This document shows positions 2,861-57,502 of a stretch of 64,000 nucleotides of DNA, in pieces. Source of the DNA: an uncultured delta proteobacterium (GTDB lineage: Bacteria; Desulfobacterota; WTBG01; CAIYCZ01; CAIRTM01); contig CAWDSQ010000007.1 of assembly GCA_963804955.1 (NCBI GenBank), positions 496,183 to 560,182 on the forward strand. The letters are read 5' to 3'. The translations under genes and the position numbers were made by a program. The stretch's first letter is position 1. Every line of letters begins with the position of its first letter. The notes under the pieces were generated by a model. That model did no database searches and was not told the origin of the DNA. It saw only the letters and a list, made by a program, of their open reading frames with translations.

Positions 2861-3286
2861 TTAAAGATTGTAGATTTCCCTGCCGAAAGTATGCACCCAG
2901 TTGCGTTTGAGGACTTTCTCGGCATCTTTTATCTTATCAACGCCCAGAATCACGATAGCCTGGTCGCTGGCGCGGCCAAGAAACGGATACAGATAGTGCA
3001 CATTGATTTTTGCCTCTTTCAGGGGCTTCACAACGGCAGTGAGCCCGCCGGGATGGTCGGGCGTCTCCACGGCCAGTACTTCGTTTTCATAGACCTGAAA
3101 CTTATGGCCGTTTAAAATATTTAAAGCCTTTGCGGGCTCATCAACCACAATGCGCACCGTGCTCACCTCGGACGTGTCGGCAACCGATATCGCCCGGATA
3201 TTGACGCCCTCCTTGCCGAGCAGCTCGCTCAAATCGGCCAGCTGACCCGGCACGTTTTTCAGCACCACGGAAATCTGCTTCAGCAT
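2861..3286 (-). CDS. Tandem ACT-domain protein
   Basis: KQISVVLKNVPGQL...GVNIRAIS and PDHPGGL...INVHYLY are two ACT repeats. Confidence 0.9.
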   Translation of the reverse strand: MLKQISVVLKNVPGQLADLSELLGKEGVNIRAISVADTSEVSTVRIVVDEPAKALNILNGHKFQVYENEVLAVETPDHPGGLTAVVKPLKEAKINVHYLYPFLGRASDQAIVILGVDKIKDAEKVLKRNWVHTFGREIYNL

Positions 3287-3834
3287 TTTTTCTGCTCCTT
3301 TTTCACAAAATCATAGCCCGCCTGAAACGCATCCCTGTTGGCTTTGAGCAGATGTGCCTTGCCCCCGCCCAGAATGTCGGGCAGGTTCTTCATCATGCGG
3401 TCAAACGAAAGCAAATTGCTTACGCCGACGAATGCGCCCATCATAACCATATTGGTGACCTTCACGTTACCGAGCTTCGTGGCGATGTCGGTTGTCGGCA
3501 CGCCCAGAACCTCGATGTCGCCGCGGGCATCGGCAGCAGTCACCAGCGTTGTATTGTACAGCATGAAGCCGCCCGAGGGCAACAGGTTCTGGAACCGGAA
3601 AAACGAGGGCTGATTGAGCGCCACCACGAACTCGGGCTCCGAAGCGATGGGGGAGGCAATTTCTTCGTCGGAGATGGTCACGGTGCAGTTTGCCGTACCG
3701 CCGCGCACCTCTGCGCCGTATGACGGCAGAAAGGTCACGAAACGGTCCTCAAGCATGGCGGCCTTTGCCAGCATCTGGCCCATGGAGATCACGCCCTGGC
3801 CGCCGAATCCTGAAAAAATTGTCTTGATCAGCAT
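3280..3834 (-). CDS. 2-oxoacid:ferredoxin oxidoreductase gamma subunit
   Basis: MLIKTIFSGFGGQG and PSYGAEVRGGTANC motifs. It is artificially fused into ORF 3280-5094 by frameshifts. Confidence 0.9.
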   Translation of the reverse strand: MLIKTIFSGFGGQGVISMGQMLAKAAMLEDRFVTFLPSYGAEVRGGTANCTVTISDEEIASPIASEPEFVVALNQPSFFRFQNLLPSGGFMLYNTTLVTAADARGDIEVLGVPTTDIATKLGNVKVTNMVMMGAFVGVSNLLSFDRMMKNLPDILGGGKAHLLKANRDAFQAGYDFVKKEQKKC

Positions 3835-4572
3835 TGCACCTCTTTTATTACCCCCAGCGGAAATTCCTTTGCCATAACCTCGTCGATCCATGCGCAGGAC
3901 GCCATGGCATCCATTTTCCAGTTGGTCGGGCAGGGCGACAGAATTTCGACAAGTGAGAATCCGCATCTTCTTTATCTGGTATTCAAAAGCCTTTTTAATG
4001 GCAGCTTTGGTCTTGCGGACTCCCGCAGGGGAGCTTACCGACACGCGCTCAAGGTAGCTCGGGCCGCCAAGCTGCGCCATGAGCTCGCAGACCCTGATGG
4101 GCTGGCCCTTCGGTTTTGCCATCGTGCGGCCAAGGGGCGAGGTGGTTGTTTTCTGGCCGATAAGAGAGGTCGGGGCCATCTGACCGCCGGTCATGCCGTA
4201 GACGGCATTATTGACAAAAATGACGGTAATATTTTCCCCGCGGTTTGCCGTATGCAGGGCCTCGGCAGTGCCGATGGCCGCCAGATCGCCGTCGCCCTGA
4301 TAGGAGAACACGAGATTATCGGGCCGCACGCGCTTAACGCCGGTTGCCACGGCCGTAGCCCTGCCATGGGGCGCCTCGACCATATCGATATCTAGATAAT
4401 TATAGGCAAGCACGGCGCATCCTGCGGGAGGCACGCATATGGCCTTGTCCTGCAGGTTCATTTCATCAAGCAGCTCGGCTATAAGCCGGTGAATAATGCT
4501 GTGGCCGCAGCCCGGGCAATAGTGCATGGACACTTTACGCAGAGATTTTGGCCGTGTGTATACTTTTTTCAT
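3828..4572 (-). CDS. 2-oxoacid:ferredoxin oxidoreductase beta (TPP-binding) subunit, frameshift near 3960
   Basis: HYCPGCGH, GDGDLAAIG and NNAVYGMTGGQ motifs; the C-terminus LSPCPTNW is in the alternate frame. Confidence 0.9.
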
Positions 4573-5662
4573 TTCTTGCGTGACCTCTTGGACTGATAAT
4601 AATGCCGCGCCATGCTGCGGGCAAGCTCGGCCGGTGCGGGCACGATCACCGCCGGGCCGCCCGTAGAAGTGTATTTTGCCTCTGCCTTCAAGGGCCAGGC
4701 GCACATCCTCGACCATCTGGCCGGTGCTCATCTCGAAAACAAAAAAATCACTCATCTTTTTTACCGCATCCCGCAGGGCCTTGGTCGGAAACGGCCACAG
4801 GGTTATGGGCCGGATGAGCCCGATGCGCACATTTTCATCCTCCTTGCGCAGGCGGTTGATAGCGCCCTTGGCAATGCGGGCCGCCGTGCCGTAGGCGATG
4901 ACCGCCATTTCGGCATCCTCCATCCGGTAGCTCTCCCAGCGCGTTTCGTTCTGCTCAATGCGCTGGTATTTGCGGTGCAGCTTCCAGTTGTGGTCCTCCA
5001 TCTCCTTCACGTCAAGGATAAGCGATTTCACAAGACGTGCGGGCCGGTCTTTAGCGCCGGTGAGGATATAGTCTTTTTCCGGAAGCGGCTTCATTCTTTT
5101 TGCGCACAGGGATGACGACCGGCTCCATGAGCTGCCCCAGCATGCCGTCGCCTAAAATCAGCACCGGGTTGCGGTACTGATCCGCCATGTCGAAGGCCAG
5201 AAACGTGAGGTCGGCAAGCTCCTGCACCGAGGCCGGCGCCAGCACCGGCGTGCGGTAGTCGCCGTGACCTCCCCCGCGGGTTGCCTGAAAATAGTCCGAC
5301 TGGGCCGGGGCGATATTGCCGAGTCCGGGCCCGCCGCGCATGATATTGACGATCACCGCCGGCAGCTCCATGCCCGCCATGAATGAAATGCCCTCCTGCT
5401 TGAGGCTGATGCCGGGGCTGCTGGATGAGGTCATGGCCCGGGCGCCTGCCACGCTTGCGCCGAGCACCATGTTAATGGACGCAAGCTCGCTTTCAGCCTG
5501 AATGAATACGCCGCCCACCTCCGGCAGCCTTCGGGACATATACTCCGGCAGCTCGTTCTGGGGGGTTATGGGATAGCCGAAATAGCAGGTGCAGCCCGCC
5601 TGAATGGCGGCCTCGCCCGCGGCATGGGTTCCGTACATGAGCTGCTTAGTTTTCGTCGTCAC
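4569..5662 (-). CDS. vorB: 2-oxoacid:ferredoxin oxidoreductase alpha subunit (VorB-like), frameshifted
   Basis: [23 protein letters not shown] and RGGPGLG motifs; continues in ORF 3280-5094 ([20 protein letters not shown]). Confidence 0.85.
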
Positions 5663-11189: not shown

Positions 11190-11852
11190 TCATGCTTGCC
11201 CCAGGGCCTGCTTCGGGCAGACGCTGCAGCACTGGCAGCATCGCAGGCAGTCGTGATCAGGCAGGCTGCCCGTGTCTTTATGTTTTGTAATCGCAAGATT
11301 CATGGGGCAGGCTTTTTCGCAGGCCCCGCATTCGATGCATTTTTCAGCATCGATTATAATACGGTGTTGGCCCCGGTCAAGGGCGCTCTGCATAGTGCCC
11401 ATGGGACAGAACGTGCACCAGGCCCGCGGGTGAATAAAAACAGCAAGAACCACGCCGACGGCTGTAGTCACCGTGCACAGAAGCCAGAACACGCGGCCCC
11501 AGTGGTCGAAGTCCGTGGGGTTGAGCATAATCCGGTAGACCATGAAGGCCATGAGCGCGGCAAAGACCGGCCAGCGGAACCAGCCGCTTCTCATCCATGC
11601 GGGTATAGGCCGCTTAAAACTCATGCGGGGCATGATGCGATCAAAGAAAGCTCCCCGCGGGCAGAGATAGCCGCATACATACCGGCCACGCACAAAGCCG
11701 CCAGCCATGCCCATGAGCATAACCACGGGCACGCTGTAGCCGAGCCAGGGATAGTGCCAGCCGAAGGCAATGACGATTACGACGATGGGCCACAGACTCA
11801 GCTGCACGGTCTTGCGCAGGGCTGTGTGTTTTTTATAATCTGCAGACGGCAT
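11190..11852 (-). CDS. Membrane 4Fe-4S binding protein (NapH/MauN/YccM-like)
   Basis: TM helices with CGYLCP and WCTFCPMG, plus CIECGACEKACP and CLRCCQCCSVCP. Confidence 0.9.
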   Translation of the reverse strand: MPSADYKKHTALRKTVQLSLWPIVVIVIAFGWHYPWLGYSVPVVMLMGMAGGFVRGRYVCGYLCPRGAFFDRIMPRMSFKRPIPAWMRSGWFRWPVFAALMAFMVYRIMLNPTDFDHWGRVFWLLCTVTTAVGVVLAVFIHPRAWCTFCPMGTMQSALDRGQHRIIIDAEKCIECGACEKACPMNLAITKHKDTGSLPDHDCLRCCQCCSVCPKQALGQA

Positions 11853-11998: not shown

Positions 11999-13573
11999 TT
12001 ACCGTGGCTGCTGCAGTGCCCGCAGTTCCGATTTTTTGTAGCCCAAAAATTTCCAGAATTTGCTATCGCTGCTATGGCAGCTATTGCAGCCCTGCTGGTC
12101 ATAGCCCAGGGCATTGGCGCCCGTCTGAATGCCATGATCAACTTTCAGCGCGCAGTTCATGGGGAAGGTGAATACGACGCCCATGGCGCGGCGAAGGGCG
12201 AAATTATAATTTTCTTTATTGCCCCGCAGCCAGCTTGTGGCTTCCATGCCCTCATTGGCGGCTGTTACCAGGTCGCCGTCGACAAGGAAATATTTCAGCA
12301 CATAGGGCACCGGCTGCAGCACGAACAAGATCAAACCACAGCAGCGCTTCATAGCGCTTGAACGGTGCAATCTTCGAGCCGTCGCCCTCTGCATAGCCTT
12401 TCTTGCTGCCCTTGGGCCCGATGGGGCATGGGCCTTCCAGATCGCCTTCCCAGCCGCCGGATGTACCGTTAAACCACCGGTACTCAGGCTCAACGCCGTA
12501 TTTCACGACGTCTTTGAATTCATAAAACGCCCCGTCCTCTCGGCAGATAGGGCCGCCGCAAATCCCGCTGCATAAGCCCGCCGGTATGCCGGATATGGCA
12601 GGTCTGGCAGGCAAGATAGTGCTGTGTGCATGTCAAGGGAGGCCTTGTTGGCATTGGCCGATGCGGTGTGCGGGGTAGAGCCGTGGCAGTCGGAGCAGTC
12701 CAGCGTGTCGGGCACCACGTCGCGGCCCCAGGACACATTGTGCTTGCCGTATTTAAATTTATGATCGCCTGCATAGTGGCACTCGGCGCAGCGAATTCCT
12801 GCTGCGGCATGCACGTCGCCATCGATGGTAGCGGTTTCCTGAACGCCCTGGCCATTATCGTAGGTCAGTTCATAGGGCTCGGCAACATAGTCGGTGCCGT
12901 ATTTGAAAGCCTTCGACATAGTGCCGTCGGGTGCAAACACCTTGCCGCCGGAATTCACATGGCAACGGTTGCAGGCTTGCGATGTTACATTGTCGCCGAC
13001 CGACTGCGCGTCCTCAAGCGAGGCATGGCTCCAGTAGGTGCGGCTCTGATTATCGCTGAGCACAACGCGCTGCCCGCCTTCGCCGCCGCCGTCATAGGTT
13101 TTGCCGTGGCACAGCACGCAGTCGATCTGGTCTTTGGCCGCTTCGGTGGCCTCGATGGGCTCACCGTCTATGGTTACCGGCATGGCATCGGCTCCTGCCG
13201 AAATATGGCAGCTGCCGCAGCCGGCATTTTTGGTATGTGTATCATCAATGGTGCTGGTCCAGACTTCAGCCCAATTGGCCCCGACGAGGCCACCGGGAAG
13301 TCCTCAATACCGGTTGCCTTTCCCTTTTTCGACATCCGCCGGATACGGTTTATTGGTCAAAAAATCATACACCCCCTGCGTCGGGCCAAGCATGCGATAG
13401 TGCAGCACATGGCTCACATCATCAACCTCGTCCGGATGGCACACACGGCAGGTTTTCGAGCCTTCATACGAGGTTATCATGCCGGTATGGTCCGTGGCGG
13501 CAAAGCCCTGCGAGCTGAGCATCAGCAGTCCAAGCCCTGCACCCCAAAAGGCAAAGAACCTTTTCTTTTTCAT
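11999..13573 (-). CDS. Secreted octaheme cytochrome c (tetrathionate-reductase-like), probable selenoprotein; in-frame UGA at 13304-13306, downstream frameshifts likely errors
   Basis: Signal peptide and 8 CxxCH motifs (CRVCH, CGSCH, CVLCH, CNRCH, CAECH, CSDCH, CQTCH, CNSCH). ORFs 13304-13573 and 12503-13183 are in the same frame, separated by only one TGA. Confidence 0.85.
13261..13303 (-). promoter_or_regulatory. Putative bacterial SECIS element
   Basis: mRNA UGA-GGACUUC CCGGU GGCCUC GUC GGGGCC A AUUGG GCU GAAGUCU folds as one hairpin. The apical loop starts with G, 18 nt after the UGA. Confidence 0.75.
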
Positions 13574-13750: not shown

Positions 13751-13826
13751 TGGTGGAGCTGAACGGGATCGAACCGTCGGCCTCTTGAATGCCATTCAAG
13801 CGCTCTCCCAGCTGAGCTACAGCCCC
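13751..13826 (-). tRNA. tRNA-Ala (anticodon GGC)
   Basis: GGGGCTGTAGCTCAGCTGGGAGAGCGCTTGAATGGCATTCAAGAGGCCGACGGTTCGATCCCGTTCAGCTCCACCA; 76 nt with CCA end and G3:U70 pair. Confidence 0.97.
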
Positions 13827-36919: not shown

Positions 36920-38312
36920 ATGATTATCGACGACACCAGCATCGCTGCGCAGCTTAAGCGCAGCGGCAACACTAACACTAACGACGCCCCCCGTGCGCGG
37001 GAAATTTTCACCAAAGCGCGCGAGCTTCATGGCATCAGCCAGACAGAGGCGCTTGCGCTGCTGCAGCTGACTGAACCTGAACTCCTGCATGAACTCTTTG
37101 AAACCGCCCGGTTTGTTAAAAATGAAATCTACGGCAACCGCCTGGTGCTGTTCGCCCCGCTCTATATTTCGAATCTCTGCGGCAATGAGTGCCTGTACTG
37201 CGCCTTCCGCCGCTCAAACAAAGAGATCGTGCGCAAGGCTCTTTCGCAGGAAGAGATCGCCAGGGAGACGGAAGTGCTGCTCGCGCAGGGCCATAAGCGG
37301 GTACTCATGGTGGCGGGCGAAGCATACCCGAAAGAGGGGCTTGAATATATCTTTCGCTCCATTGAAACCATCTACAGTGTTTCAGTGCCCAGGGGTGCCG
37401 TGCGCCGCGTCAATGTCAATATTGCACCCCTCACGGTTGATGAATTCCGGGAACTCGGCAAGCACCGCATCGGCACCTATCAGCTGTTCCAGGAAACCTA
37501 CCACCGCCCAACCTATGCAAAGCTGCATACCGGCGGGCTTAAAGCTAATTATGATTACCGGCTTGAGGCAATGGATCGCGCTTTCCAGGGCGGGCTAAAA
37601 GACCTGGGCATCGGCCTGCTGTTCGGGCTGCATGACTGGCGCTATGAAATACTGGCCCTGCTGCAGCACATAGCGCATCTTGGAAAAAAATTTCGGCGTC
37701 GGCCCGCACACTATCTCCGTGCCGCGGCTTGAGCCCGCCGTGGGATCGGATGTAAGCACCCACCCGCCCTATCCCGTCACGGATGACGACTTTCGCAAAA
37801 TCATCGCCGTGCTGCGCATCGCAGTGCCCTATACGGGCATCATCCTGAGCACGCGCGAATCGGCAGCCATGCGGCGCGAGGCATTCGAGCTGGGGGTTTC
37901 CCAGATTTCCGCGGGCTCGCGCACGAACCCGGGCGGCTACAGCGAAAGCGCCCATGAAACCGGCGAGCAGTTTTCACTGGGCGATACGCGGCCCCTCATG
38001 TCCGTCATACATGACATTATCGAGCACAACCATATTCCGTCGTTCTGCACCGGCTGCTACCGCCTGGGCCGGGTGGGCAAAGATTTTATGGACATGGCCA
38101 AGCCGGGCCTTATCAAGCAGCACTGCCTGCCCAATGCCATCTTCACCTTTGCAGAATACCTGCATGATTTTGCCGACGCAGAATTAAAAGAAAAAGGCTT
38201 TGCTCTTATCGATCAGATGCTCAGCAGTGAAATCGGCGCCGGCAAGCTTAAAAAAACCACCCTCAAAAACCTTGAGCGGATTGCTTCTGGCGAACGCGAC
38301 CTTTATCTGTAA
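36920..38312 (+). CDS. hydG: [FeFe]-hydrogenase maturase HydG (radical SAM), frameshift at the A-run near 37685
   Basis: APLYISNLCGNECLYC, FQETYH, GVGPHTISVPR and C-terminal CX2CX22C (CTGC...C). Confidence 0.9.
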
Positions 38313-53925: not shown

Positions 53926-56736
53926 TTAAAATGTATTGCCCATGGAAAATTCGAAATTGCTGGAGGGCTCGTCATACTTTGATTTCGGGCTCGGATTATA
54001 GCCCCACTCAACGCGCAGTGGCCCGAACGGCGAATACCACCGGATACCCAGACCAACATCATAGCGCAGGTCGGAAAAATAGGTGTCGCTCTTATCGTAG
54101 GAGTTGCCGATATCGGTAAACACTACACCCCGGATTCCCGCCTCCTTCATGATGGGGAAAAGGTATTCAAAGTTGAAATACAGCGCCTTGTCGCCGCCCA
54201 CGCATTCATAGTCATCGTCGTAGCCCTTTTGCGGTATCTTGATCGTCCTCTTCACGTTGCCGTTGCGGTCATAGATATAATACTTTTTCGACCCCTTTGG
54301 CCGGCGCTCCATCGGCCCCATGCTGCGCGCCTCAAACCCGCGCATGCTGTCGATGCCGCCCAGAAAATATTTTTCCGAAATGGGGATATCTTCACCCAGC
54401 TCAAAGAACTGGCCGATTGTGCCGCGCATCATAAACGCCGTGTCCCAGAACAGGGGAAACCATTTGGCGGCGCTGAAGTTCAGGCCAAGGTAGCGGGCAT
54501 CGCCGCCGAAGCCGGCAAGCTCGGCCGATCCGCTCGATTACGGTGCCCATGCGCGGCTTGAATTTGTCATCGCGCGTGTCGCGCGTGATGCTGTTGATAA
54601 TGCTGCTGATGATGGTTTTGCCCGCCTGACTTCTGGATTTCAAGAGGCGCATCATCGCCATCGCCGTAGTAGTATCCTCATCATTCCAGTCATCACTTCG
54701 ATCGTAGTCGGAATTACCCCGTAACTTGATGTCGATAGACTCAAGCCGGTACGTGATGTGATAGCGCGTATAGTCGTACTTGAAGAAAGGAAAGCTCGGC
54801 GCGCAGGTTCAGGCCGATGCTTTCGCGGTCGAAGTCCTCATACTCGCGGTTTATGTTGAACAGGTCGAAACCCGACGGACATGCGCGAATCTTTATACCA
54901 GGGCTCGGTAAACGATATATTATAATAGCTCGATCTGCCGCCGAGCTGGGCCATGAACGACAGCTGCTGGCCCTTGCCGAAAAGGTTGTTCTGGGAAATG
55001 GAAAACATGCCCATGACGCTGTCAACGGAGCTGTAGCCCTGCGCCGATGCTGAAGGAGCCGGTGGGGCGCTCCTTGACCTCGACATGCAGCTTCACCTTG
55101 CCGGGGATTAGAGCCGGGCTCGGTGTTGATGTTTACCTCTTCGAAGTAGCCGAGCTTGTTGACATCCTGCTTGCCGCGCTTGATTTCCTCGGAATTGTAC
55201 ACGCCGCCTTCCCACAGGCGCAGTTCGCGGCGGATGACATTGTCGCGCGTTCGGGTATTGCCCGTAACGCGGATCTCCTCAATGAATATCTTGTCGCCGC
55301 GGTCGATGGCAAAAATGATATTCACCTTCTTTTCTTCGGCCTGGATATCGGTAAGCGGTGAAACATCGGCATACGCGAAGCCTTTTTCAGAATAGATGCC
55401 CTTAAGGGCTACCAGATCGTCATTCAGGGTGCGGCCGTTGAAAATCTGACCGGGCAGATATTTTTACCTTGTTCTGCAAGCTCATTCGGGGGATAGATGA
55501 GATCACCCTTGAACTCACTGGTTCCGATGGTGAAGCGGTCGCCCTCGGTGATAGTGAAATGCACATAGATGCCATCGTCCTTGAAATCAACGGTCGGCTT
55601 ATCGACCTTCACCATCAGGAAAGCCCTTGCTGTAGTAATAGGCTGTCAGGCGCTCAGCGTCCTTGTCAAGGGATTCGTCCTTGAAAACGCCCACAGTGGT
55701 GAAATACGACAGGAGCCAGTGTTTTTTCCGCGTCTCCATAATACCCCGAAGCTCGCCGGCCTTGATGGAGTCGTTGCCGGAAAAGGTTACCCCCTTGACC
55801 TTAACAATCTTATTTTCCGTTATATCAAAATCAACGGAAGCAAAATCCTCATCAATGGGATTGACCCGGTAGGTTATCTCGGCATTGTAGTAGCCCTTTT
55901 CCATATAGGCCTTCTTGATGCGGCCCACATCCCCGACGACCTTGTTGACATCAAGAATCGTGCGCGGCTTGACCTCCATGACCTTCTGAATATCCTCTAT
56001 CTTAAGGCTTTTGGTGCCGTTGATCTGCACGGCCCGTATCATGGGCTTTTCCACACGGTGAAGGTCACTTCCTTGCCGCCCTCAATATCCTGCGTGGTGA
56101 TCTGAATATCCTTGAAATAGCCCATTTCATAGACTTTTTTCAGATCTTCCTGCACCATGTCGGGGGAATACGGCTCGCCCTTTTTCGTCTGCATGACATA
56201 CAGGATGGCGTCCTTCTCAATGAACTTATTGCCGTTTATGAGCACATCGGCCACAAGCTCCCGGTTGAGGATCACAAAGCTCAAACGCCTGGCCAGATCC
56301 TGCATGCTGGCCGGAAGTTCAGCGGTGTCATCGGCGGTAAGGTATACGCGCTGCAGGGGCCTTTTGCCGCTCATATCGATGATGGCAGCGTCGATGCTTG
56401 CCGCCTTGCCGATTTTTGTGAGCGTGCCGCCAACGACAAAATCAGCGCCCACTGCCCGGCCGACAGAGCGGGCACGCCTGCTCGGTGAAGCCCTTCCACC
56501 CGAGCTGCAGCAAGGGCCTTTGCCACCACGGGTTTGGGCACGACCATAATTTCCCCGGGCTTTTCAAGGCGCGTGGCGACCATGTCCGGCAGGGCGCGGC
56601 TGAGATAATCTATGGAATCCTTGCTGTTGACGGTAAAGGGCAGCACACACACCTTGACCCCGTCTGCCGCATAGACATTTCCCGGGCCGGCATACAGCAG
56701 CGCCGCTGCAACAATGAATAGTATTTTTTTAAACAT
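53926..56736 (-). CDS. bamA: Outer-membrane assembly factor BamA with extra N-terminal domain, multiple frameshifts
   Basis: POTRA motifs (GNTRTRDNVIRRE), NLFGKGQ, LGGIDSMRGF, WYSPFGPLR and C-terminal FSMGNTF. Confidence 0.92.
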
Positions 56737-56797
56737 CGCTTCGACTCTCTCGCCTGATGAGTACGTTTTTATCTCAGCCGCCAGGCGGCATAGCATA

Positions 56798-57502
56798 TCA
56801 TGCACTAACGATGCAGCCATCGACGAGCGTTACGCATCGCGGCGTGCTGCGTGCAAATTCTTCATTGTGTGTCACAATAATAAGCGTCATCCCGAACTCC
56901 CGGTTCAGCTCCTGCAGCAGGCCAAACACTTCATGGCCCGTATGCGTGTCGAGATTGCCGGTTGGCTCATCGGCAAGCACCACCTCGGGGCTCATCACCA
57001 GAGCCCGCGCCACGGCAACGCGCTGCTGCTCGCCGCCGGAAAGCTCTCCCGGGCTTATGCTCAAGCCGCTGCCCCAGCCCCATGCGCTCAAGAAGCCCCC
57101 GGGCTTTGGCCTCTGCCGCCTTCAGGTCCGACGCCTGCAATACGGGCCGGCATCATGGTGTTTTCAAGCGCTGTAAACTCCGGCAGCAGATGATGAAACT
57201 GAAAAATAAACCCGAGCTTGCGGTTTCTGAAATCGGCAAGGGCGCTGTGGCTGCTGCGAAAACAGATCGCTGCCGCCATACAGGACTTTGCCCGAAGTCG
57301 GATGGTCAACCGTTCCGATAATATTTAAAAGCGTGCTTTTGCCCGCGCCTGATGGCCCGATTACCGACAGCAGCTCGCCCCGGGCAATCGAAAAACTCAC
57401 ACCCCTGAGAACCTCGGTGCGCGTGCTGTTATGCACATAGGCCTTGCCTACGCCTTCAAGCCTGATCAGCTCCCCTGCCCCGGCAGCCCCGCTGTTATTC
57501 AT
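56798..57502 (-). CDS. lolD: Lipoprotein-releasing ABC ATPase, frameshifted
   Basis: [35 protein letters not shown] and ADEPTGNLD motifs. Confidence 0.9.

Follow-up and report, generated by a model that had tools for sequence, protein, structure and literature searches.

A predicted selenocysteine-containing octaheme cytochrome c from a divergent subfamily of the octaheme tetrathionate reductase superfamily in Desulfobacterota

Two described multiheme cytochromes are closest to the gene considered here, namely octaheme tetrathionate reductase (OTR; SO4144, PDB 1SP3) of Shewanella oneidensis, and MccSep/ExtKL (GSU2937-2936) of Geobacter sulfurreducens. In OTR, heme 2 is ligated by Lys56 (accessible part of PMC3769277). 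MccSep is described, in the accessible part of PMC13510729, as a selenocysteine (Sec)-containing pentaheme polysulfide reductase whose Sec residue, U325, lies in an Ig-like domain at the C terminus and whose heme 2 has His/Cys ligation, and a Sec-containing OTR family is listed as a GenBank-annotated selenoprotein, with WP_331457571.1 as the example, in the portion available of a 2026 review (PMC13188914). The gene examined is located in a 64,000-nucleotide (nt) stretch of DNA from an uncultured delta proteobacterium of the phylum Desulfobacterota (GenBank assembly GCA_963804955.1; contig CAWDSQ010000007.1; positions 496,183 to 560,182 of the forward strand). The whole of this stretch is referred to as the window, and positions are counted from its first letter. 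A Sec-containing OTR-type cytochrome is already a known kind, and the gene described below is a representative of a divergent subfamily.

A first-pass annotation of the window had proposed that two open reading frames (ORFs) form one gene for a Sec-containing octaheme cytochrome c. It is very likely, from the comparisons that follow, that there is one gene here for a periplasmic octaheme cytochrome c of the OTR superfamily, in which UGA at codon 90 is decoded as Sec. The first ORF (13573-13304) has 89 codons and includes a signal peptide, and the downstream heme ORF starts at 13183. Three-frame translation agreed with the annotation in placing both in one frame with exactly one TGA between them, and also in that the break at this point is not an indel. 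The read-through product, ...EKGKGNRY-U-GLPGGLVGANW...CGSCH, recovers the heme motif that was missing from the ORFs and brings the total of CxxCH motifs to eight, as had been claimed. The annotation is to be corrected in one respect here, as the window copy has three additional frameshifts, which have to be crossed to reach hemes 7 and 8. Once three 1-nt insertions are discounted, the gene is ~524 codons long and ends at a TAA stop codon (12001-11999). When a profile of the subfamily was run against the genome of origin, this gene scored 725.5 bits and was the sole full copy. From the TGA to the first ATG (13183) there are 40 codons, which include no start codon, contain the heme 2 motif and are conserved at the protein level. 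The features of the gene are as follows.

11999-13573, minus strand: predicted gene with a single Sec codon, encoding an octaheme cytochrome c that would be exported (three-frame translation)
13573-13496, minus strand: predicted signal peptide MKKKRFFAFWGAGLGLLMLSSQGFAA, with an Ala-x-Ala-type cleavage site and no lipobox Cys (from reading the sequence)
13450-13436, minus strand: heme 1 motif CRVCH (translation)
13321-13319, minus strand: Lys85 in GKGNRY, aligned with OTR Lys56 (invariance in the subfamily and hhalign)
13306-13304, minus strand: in-frame TGA, codon 90, predicted to be read as Sec (translation and alignment of relatives)
13219-13205, minus strand: heme 2 motif CGSCH, presumed active-site heme, within the stretch dropped by ORF callers
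13120-13106, minus strand: heme 3 motif CVLCH (translation)
12973-12959, minus strand: heme 4 motif CNRCH (translation)
12790-12776, minus strand: heme 5 motif CAECH (translation)
12697-12683, minus strand: heme 6 motif CSDCH (translation)
12609-12595, minus strand: heme 7 motif CQTCH, in the +1 frame past the first insertion (translation)
12088-12074, minus strand: heme 8 motif CNSCH, in the original frame again (translation)

The codon homologous to the window TGA was examined in DNA of 23 related loci (five from species genomes and 18 from metagenomes; protein identity 58-89%), among which L044 and L045 duplicate L027 across the 72 nt compared. This codon was found to be TGA in 21 loci and TGC in two, and Cys was also found at the Sec column in 18 of 25 distant homologues, matching the annotation's expectation of either Cys or TGA at this column. 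In 12 of the TGA-type loci the frame is open for 432-443 codons past the TGA to a common ...LQxPR C-terminus, and eight further TGA-type loci leave their contigs with the frame still open. In another, L026 (coordinates 3184-3300), the frame breaks 38 codons past the TGA. L026 is the closest genome relative, with 88% protein identity, and retains the TGA and the hairpin described below despite the frame break, which looks like the product of another indel-rich assembly.

A search of 5.8 billion proteins for homologues returned 37 matches, of which 34 span just 42-69% of the query. In an alignment of 11 of the short homologues, each starts past the TGA column, and a search of representative proteins found three N-terminal fragments of 97-100 amino acids (aa) that end exactly at residue 89. 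The splitting by gene callers that had been predicted is therefore evident in the databases. Two full-length homologues (527 and 530 aa) carry Cys at the TGA column. The Cys-type genes L025 and L030 have the substitutions GGVVGANW, FTF-K-P and SLEAVFEG in common, which suggests that a single switch from Sec to Cys may have occurred inside the subfamily.

Bacterial selenocysteine insertion sequence (SECIS) elements are hairpins located at a canonical distance from the UGA, with a G (GU) opening the apical loop. Downstream of the TGA, the following element was found.

13297-13270, minus strand: conserved SECIS-like element (consensus of 20 TGA-type sequences)

The consensus element consists of a 5-base-pair (bp) stem (bases 10-14 and 33-37 after the U of UGA) beneath a 6-bp G+C stem (bases 16-21 and 25-30; GGCCUC/GGGGCC), closed by an apical loop of G22-U23-N24 at 13285-13283. 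None of the 12 consensus pairs is broken across the 20 TGA-type sequences, and at three pairs there are one-sided changes that preserve pairing through a wobble (C-G/U-G 13:7, G-U/G-C 11:9 and G-C/G-U 19:1). Codon entropy in the ten full-length TGA-type genes is zero at four codons of the upper stem, and elsewhere it is zero at only 2 of the 95 comparable invariant columns with four- or six-fold degeneracy. The codon in the loop is variable, unlike those in the stem, and the 12-codon stretch with the lowest entropy in the whole gene starts five codons past the TGA. In both TGC genes the upper stem is disrupted, with GGCGUG...GGUGCG and GGGGUU...GGAGCA found instead.

The annotation had described a single 43-nt hairpin in the window sequence. 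Bases 4-46 past the U of UGA do fold in this way (-22.4 kcal/mol), and the upper stem of that hairpin is conserved, but its lower stem (GGACUUC/GAAGUCU) is not, as it is peculiar to the window and contributes one pair only (C7-G40) to the consensus structure. Interpretation of the hairpin as SECIS-like gained support from the unbroken pairs and from stem codons that are frozen at synonymous sites.

The source genome (36 contigs, 4.26 Mb, 87% complete) was searched for selA, selB, selC and selD, as the annotation had proposed, and selB (345 bits), selA (492 bits) and selD (334 bits) were all found above the NCBIfam cut-offs. A gene for tRNA-Sec (76.7 bits; ARAGORN anticodon tca) adjoins selA. 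The selD gene of the same genome has an in-frame TGA of its own (contig C28; coordinates 1709-2632), and in-frame TGA codons were also seen in two FdhA-like matches (C7:184907-186261 and C13:110135-110893), the first of which appears to be split in two.

Pfam analysis identified cytochrome c3/c7-type stretches in the window gene, and the intact homologues include a C-terminal PF11783 match above the cut-off (24.8 versus 22.1 bits). A profile of the subfamily matched PDB 1SP3, the Shewanella OTR, with an E value of 1.3e-10, and this required the profile, as a single-sequence PDB search with P0003, a full-length Cys-type homologue, returned no OTR match. Foldseek analysis of a low-confidence AlphaFold2 model of the intact L028 protein, a member of the subfamily, found 1SP3 as the sole significant match (E value of 5.5e-12; 485 columns; ~21% identity). 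When 12 full-length members of the subfamily were aligned using hhalign with 14 genes of the canonical OTR family from the same phylum, the match (Prob 99.9, E value of 3.7e-32) covered 388 columns with 29% identities. The alignment pairs GK---NRY[U] with GK...NNF[C] between hemes 1 and 2, and in 1SP3 numbering the aligned columns are Lys56 and Cys64. This agrees with the earlier proposal that Sec replaces the Cys found past GK...NNF between hemes 1 and 2.

Lys85 (K84 in L028 numbering) is invariant in all 12 full-length sequences, and the lysine of the GK motif would supply the ligand of heme 2, as Lys56 does in OTR. Cys64 is said to lie in the active site of OTR, and no role for this residue was found in the open-text literature. 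On the basis of these alignments, the subfamily is predicted to belong to the OTR superfamily, as a divergent branch that falls below the TIGR04315 cut-off.

The canonical OTR family is widespread, as it was found in 79 of 401 Desulfobacterota genomes at an E value of 1e-40 or lower using TIGR04315. In the same 401 genomes there were 67 TIGR04315 matches over the cut-off, and 28 of the 67 carry one in-frame TGA, so that, contrary to what the annotation had stated, multiheme cytochromes with Sec cannot be called rare in this phylum. At 30 canonical OTR loci, the GK...NNF[C/U] column was TGA in 15 and Cys in 15. The canonical TGA loci (L058, L060, L061, L066-L068, L074-L076 and L079-L084) have hairpins unlike that of the window. 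Canonical Sec-type genes encode NWCRC or NEARC ahead of heme 2, most Cys-type genes encode NWPRC or NEPRC, and L071 is an exception, being of the Cys type with NWCRC. The SECIS may thus constrain the protein sequence in canonical OTR genes.

The subfamily represented by the window gene was found in 5 of the 401 genomes, all from one order, and TIGR04315 had no match at an E value of 1e-40 or lower in the genome of origin. It is characterised by a shorter spacing between Lys and Sec, an insert of ~19 residues ahead of heme 2, and a hairpin of its own. No NCBIfam model names this subfamily, and the NCBI label is 'cytochrome c3 family protein'. In the parts accessible of the literature searched, Sec-containing OTR-type cytochromes are treated only in one table row of PMC13188914, without analysis. 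The new part is therefore a divergent unannotated subfamily that is almost always of the Sec type, though the supplements of PMC13188914 and PMC13510729 might mention it.

Aligned with L028, an intact gene with which it shares 86.6% nt identity, the window copy has three 1-nt insertions and one in-frame 3-nt indel, and the alignment is otherwise gapless. It was also compared with contigs from four other public runs, which are from relatives mostly 95-99% alike. The reading frame changes at each of the following insertions, with frame +1 entered near 12620, frame +2 near 12541-12528 and the original frame 0 again near 12329-12323.

12620, minus strand: insertion 1, frame 0 to +1 (base left out in the contigs of runs X3 and X4; gap relative to L028)
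12541-12528, minus strand: insertion 2, placement ambiguous (base absent at 12540/12541 in four runs; L028 gap at 12528)
12329-12323, minus strand: insertion 3, restores the original frame (base absent at 12323/12326 in X2, X3 and X4; L028 gap at 12329)

Several findings weigh against an intact Sec-encoding octaheme gene. As assembled, the window copy cannot yield the whole protein, since the original frame past insertion 1 closes at 12503, short of hemes 7 and 8, and the insertions lie within 300 nt of one another, with none in a clean homopolymer. The best-matching public run covers a fraction of 0.21 of the sampled words, so that neither the TGA nor the insertions have support from the organism's own reads. 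Among the differences listed relative to the contigs of other runs, there was none at 13304-13306. No two-sided compensatory change was seen in any consensus pair of the hairpin in the 20 sequences. The folding energy of the hairpin is not above that of shuffled sequences (z = -0.92; an energy as low or lower was reached by 36 of 200 shuffles), and it was therefore not used as evidence, the case for recoding being made from the comparison of relatives. Rfam found only tRNA and no SECIS family in the whole window at the gathering threshold, and no SECIS match in 13200-13350 at an E value of 10 or lower, though Rfam's coverage of bacterial SECIS is uncertain. The scores with TIGR04315, which was the top NCBIfam model, are 78.3 bits for P0003 and 43.9 bits for the read-through piece from the window, against a cut-off of 375. 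The AlphaFold2 model of the L028 protein (41-sequence alignment) has a mean predicted local distance difference test (pLDDT) score of 58.9, with ~40 around the Sec position and mostly below 50 in the N-terminal 100 residues, and as this model is poor, placement of Sec relative to heme 2 rests on the OTR alignment and not on structure. As the neighbourhoods are not conserved, gene context is of little help on the substrate.

The three insertions are probably errors of assembly, in which case the gene of the organism is intact, as they are absent from relatives and the window has other split genes. These are genes for an AMP-binding enzyme (303-1908), a pyruvate:ferredoxin oxidoreductase (3280-5659), a radical-SAM/BATS enzyme (36920-38309) and BamA (53926-56817), the last in at least four pieces, and such splitting indicates that indel errors are frequent in this assembly. 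A less likely alternative is that, within a genuine Sec family, the window copy is a real pseudogene, its insertions being real and its protein ending before hemes 7 and 8. The clustering of the insertions outside clean homopolymer runs would fit with this, and their absence from relatives that are 95-99% alike fits a strain-specific change as well as it does an error. However, loss of BamA is not tolerated by diderm bacteria, and BamA is among the several frame-split genes. The 87% completeness combined with long contigs is a pattern that would be typical of indel-rich long-read assemblies, and L026, the closest genome relative, has a frame break too. The near-gapless alignment with L028, in which the insertions add up to +3 so that the frame is regained, also argues against decay of the gene.

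If the TGA were a true stop, an 89-residue monoheme protein and a separate seven-heme protein would be made. This is how gene callers treat the locus, and the short database homologues and the fragments ending at residue 89 conform to it. It is nevertheless very improbable, as the stretch between the TGA and the first ATG is conserved as protein with its heme 2 motif and without a start codon, and a c-type cytochrome requires a signal peptide, which is missing from the downstream part. In addition, two homologues continue through this position with TGC, and the Cys/Sec column and the Lys that precedes it are conserved across the OTR superfamily. Reading of the UGA by a route other than Sec, either near-cognate insertion of Trp or Cys or a reassigned code, has a similarly slight chance of being correct. 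The claim of Sec rests on sequence and the energy of the hairpin is unremarkable, but the genome has the complete sel set and tRNA-Sec, and the only alternate at the column in the related loci is Cys, the usual signature of a Sec/Cys pair. Synonymous constraint falls exactly on a hairpin at the distance expected of a bacterial SECIS, and elsewhere in the window TGA is an ordinary stop, with long intact ORFs under table 11.

The sequences flanking the gene include the following features.

11977-11952, minus strand: intrinsic-terminator-like hairpin and T run directly past the stop (11 pairs, 9 of them G-C)
13687-13658, minus strand: weak match to a sigma-70-like promoter ahead of the start codon (9 of 12 positions in the hexamers)

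The promoter match is not above chance (one site versus 1.7 expected in shuffles). A tRNA-Ala(GGC) gene lies just upstream (13751-13826), and the octaheme gene looks monocistronic. The downstream gene (11190-11852) encodes a membrane protein with Fer4_5 and 4Fe-4S dicluster domains, NapH/MauN-like by Pfam, and its product could act as an electron donor. In a tblastn search of the 23 related loci at an E value of 1e-5 or lower, no match was found for this gene or for four other neighbours in the window, and the sole neighbour with a match was a histone-deacetylase-family gene, in L042. The Pfam content of the neighbours differs between loci, and no operon partner could be named.

Other multiheme cytochromes are encoded near the homologues in L023, L024, L025 and L034. 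Genes for rhodanese-domain proteins adjoin the homologues in L024 (2722-3756) and L026 (4687-6381), the domain in L026 being fused to a pyridine-nucleotide disulfide oxidoreductase, and these are a weak hint at sulfur chemistry. Large subunits of NiFeSe hydrogenases are encoded downstream in L034 and L037, and AhpD-like genes are found in L031 and L032.

From the comparisons above we infer selenium incorporation, Lys ligation, the proximity of Sec to heme 2 and the type of substrate. In the proposed mechanism, SelB carrying Sec-tRNA(Sec) would bind the hairpin 10-37 nt past the UGA, with its G-U-N apical loop, and Sec would be inserted, after which the ~524-residue protein would be exported and loaded with eight hemes. 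Sec90 would occupy the OTR Cys64 position, five residues past Lys85, which is invariant. In OTR the equivalent of Lys85 is Lys56, which serves as axial ligand to the catalytic heme 2, and Sec is therefore expected in the active-site pocket. In the distal pocket of the Lys-ligated heme 2, Sec90 could then be the nucleophile or a redox partner, and the reaction would be the reduction of a small sulfur, selenium or nitrogen compound. The likeliest substrates would be S-S bonds of the tetrathionate, polysulfide or thiosulfate type. More tentatively, and with the balance of probability against it, this narrow clade from freshwater-sediment Desulfobacterota could be a functionally distinct selenoenzyme acting on polysulfide, thiosulfate or selenite and not another tetrathionate reductase.

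On this more tentative reading of a distinct selenoenzyme, the clade-specific GLPGGLVGANW insert would double as a stretch that encodes the SECIS and as a remodelled substrate pocket. The 34 short entries of the subfamily are without the signal peptide, heme 1, the heme 2 lysine and heme 2, and as nearly all entries are N-terminally short in this way, metabolic readings of these genomes miss a complete redox enzyme. To our knowledge, MccSep is the only Sec-containing multiheme cytochrome to have been characterised, and we know of no study of an enzyme with Sec at the active-site position of OTR. The natural Sec/Cys pairs in the subfamily and in canonical OTR genes are a ready experiment on what selenium contributes to heme-based sulfur and nitrogen chemistry.

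Compared with the named systems, the window gene is most like OTR, which also has eight CxxCH motifs and in which the GK lysine (Lys56) and the Cys64 column match Lys85 and Sec90. OTR differs in having Cys at the position of Sec, in the spacing from Lys to Cys or Sec (8 residues in OTR and 5 in the window gene), and in having ~19 fewer residues between this position and heme 2, where the window gene has GLPGGLVGANWAE... in addition. Canonical Sec-type members of TIGR04315, which are from the same phylum, have Sec at the identical column, past GK...NNF and ahead of heme 2. However, they form another subfamily with a different hairpin sequence and are far more widely spread than the window subfamily.

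Membership in the MccSep/ExtKL family was considered and rejected, as the window gene has eight motifs, has its Sec (residue 90) between hemes 1 and 2, and does not match NF040886. This model (MccSep/ExtKL) was not among the NCBIfam matches at an E value of 0.01 or lower for three proteins, and PDB sequence searches (E value of 1 or lower) returned nothing named MccSep or ExtKL, the presence of such an entry in the copy searched being unchecked. MccSep, as described in the accessible text, has five hemes and not eight, its Sec is not between hemes 1 and 2, and its heme 2 is His/Cys-ligated, in contrast to the Lys ligation presumed for the window gene. Like the product predicted from the window gene, it is a multiheme cytochrome c of the periplasm with a single Sec, its gene is split by gene callers at the UGA, and it also has a SECIS-like hairpin just past the UGA and relatives of the Cys type. 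A selenolate over a Lys-ligated heme in the window protein would, if confirmed, be a second and independently evolved Sec-plus-heme centre beside that of MccSep. As the Sec of MccSep adjoins its unusually ligated heme 2 in that same account, MccSep is a plausible model for the sulfur chemistry of such a centre.

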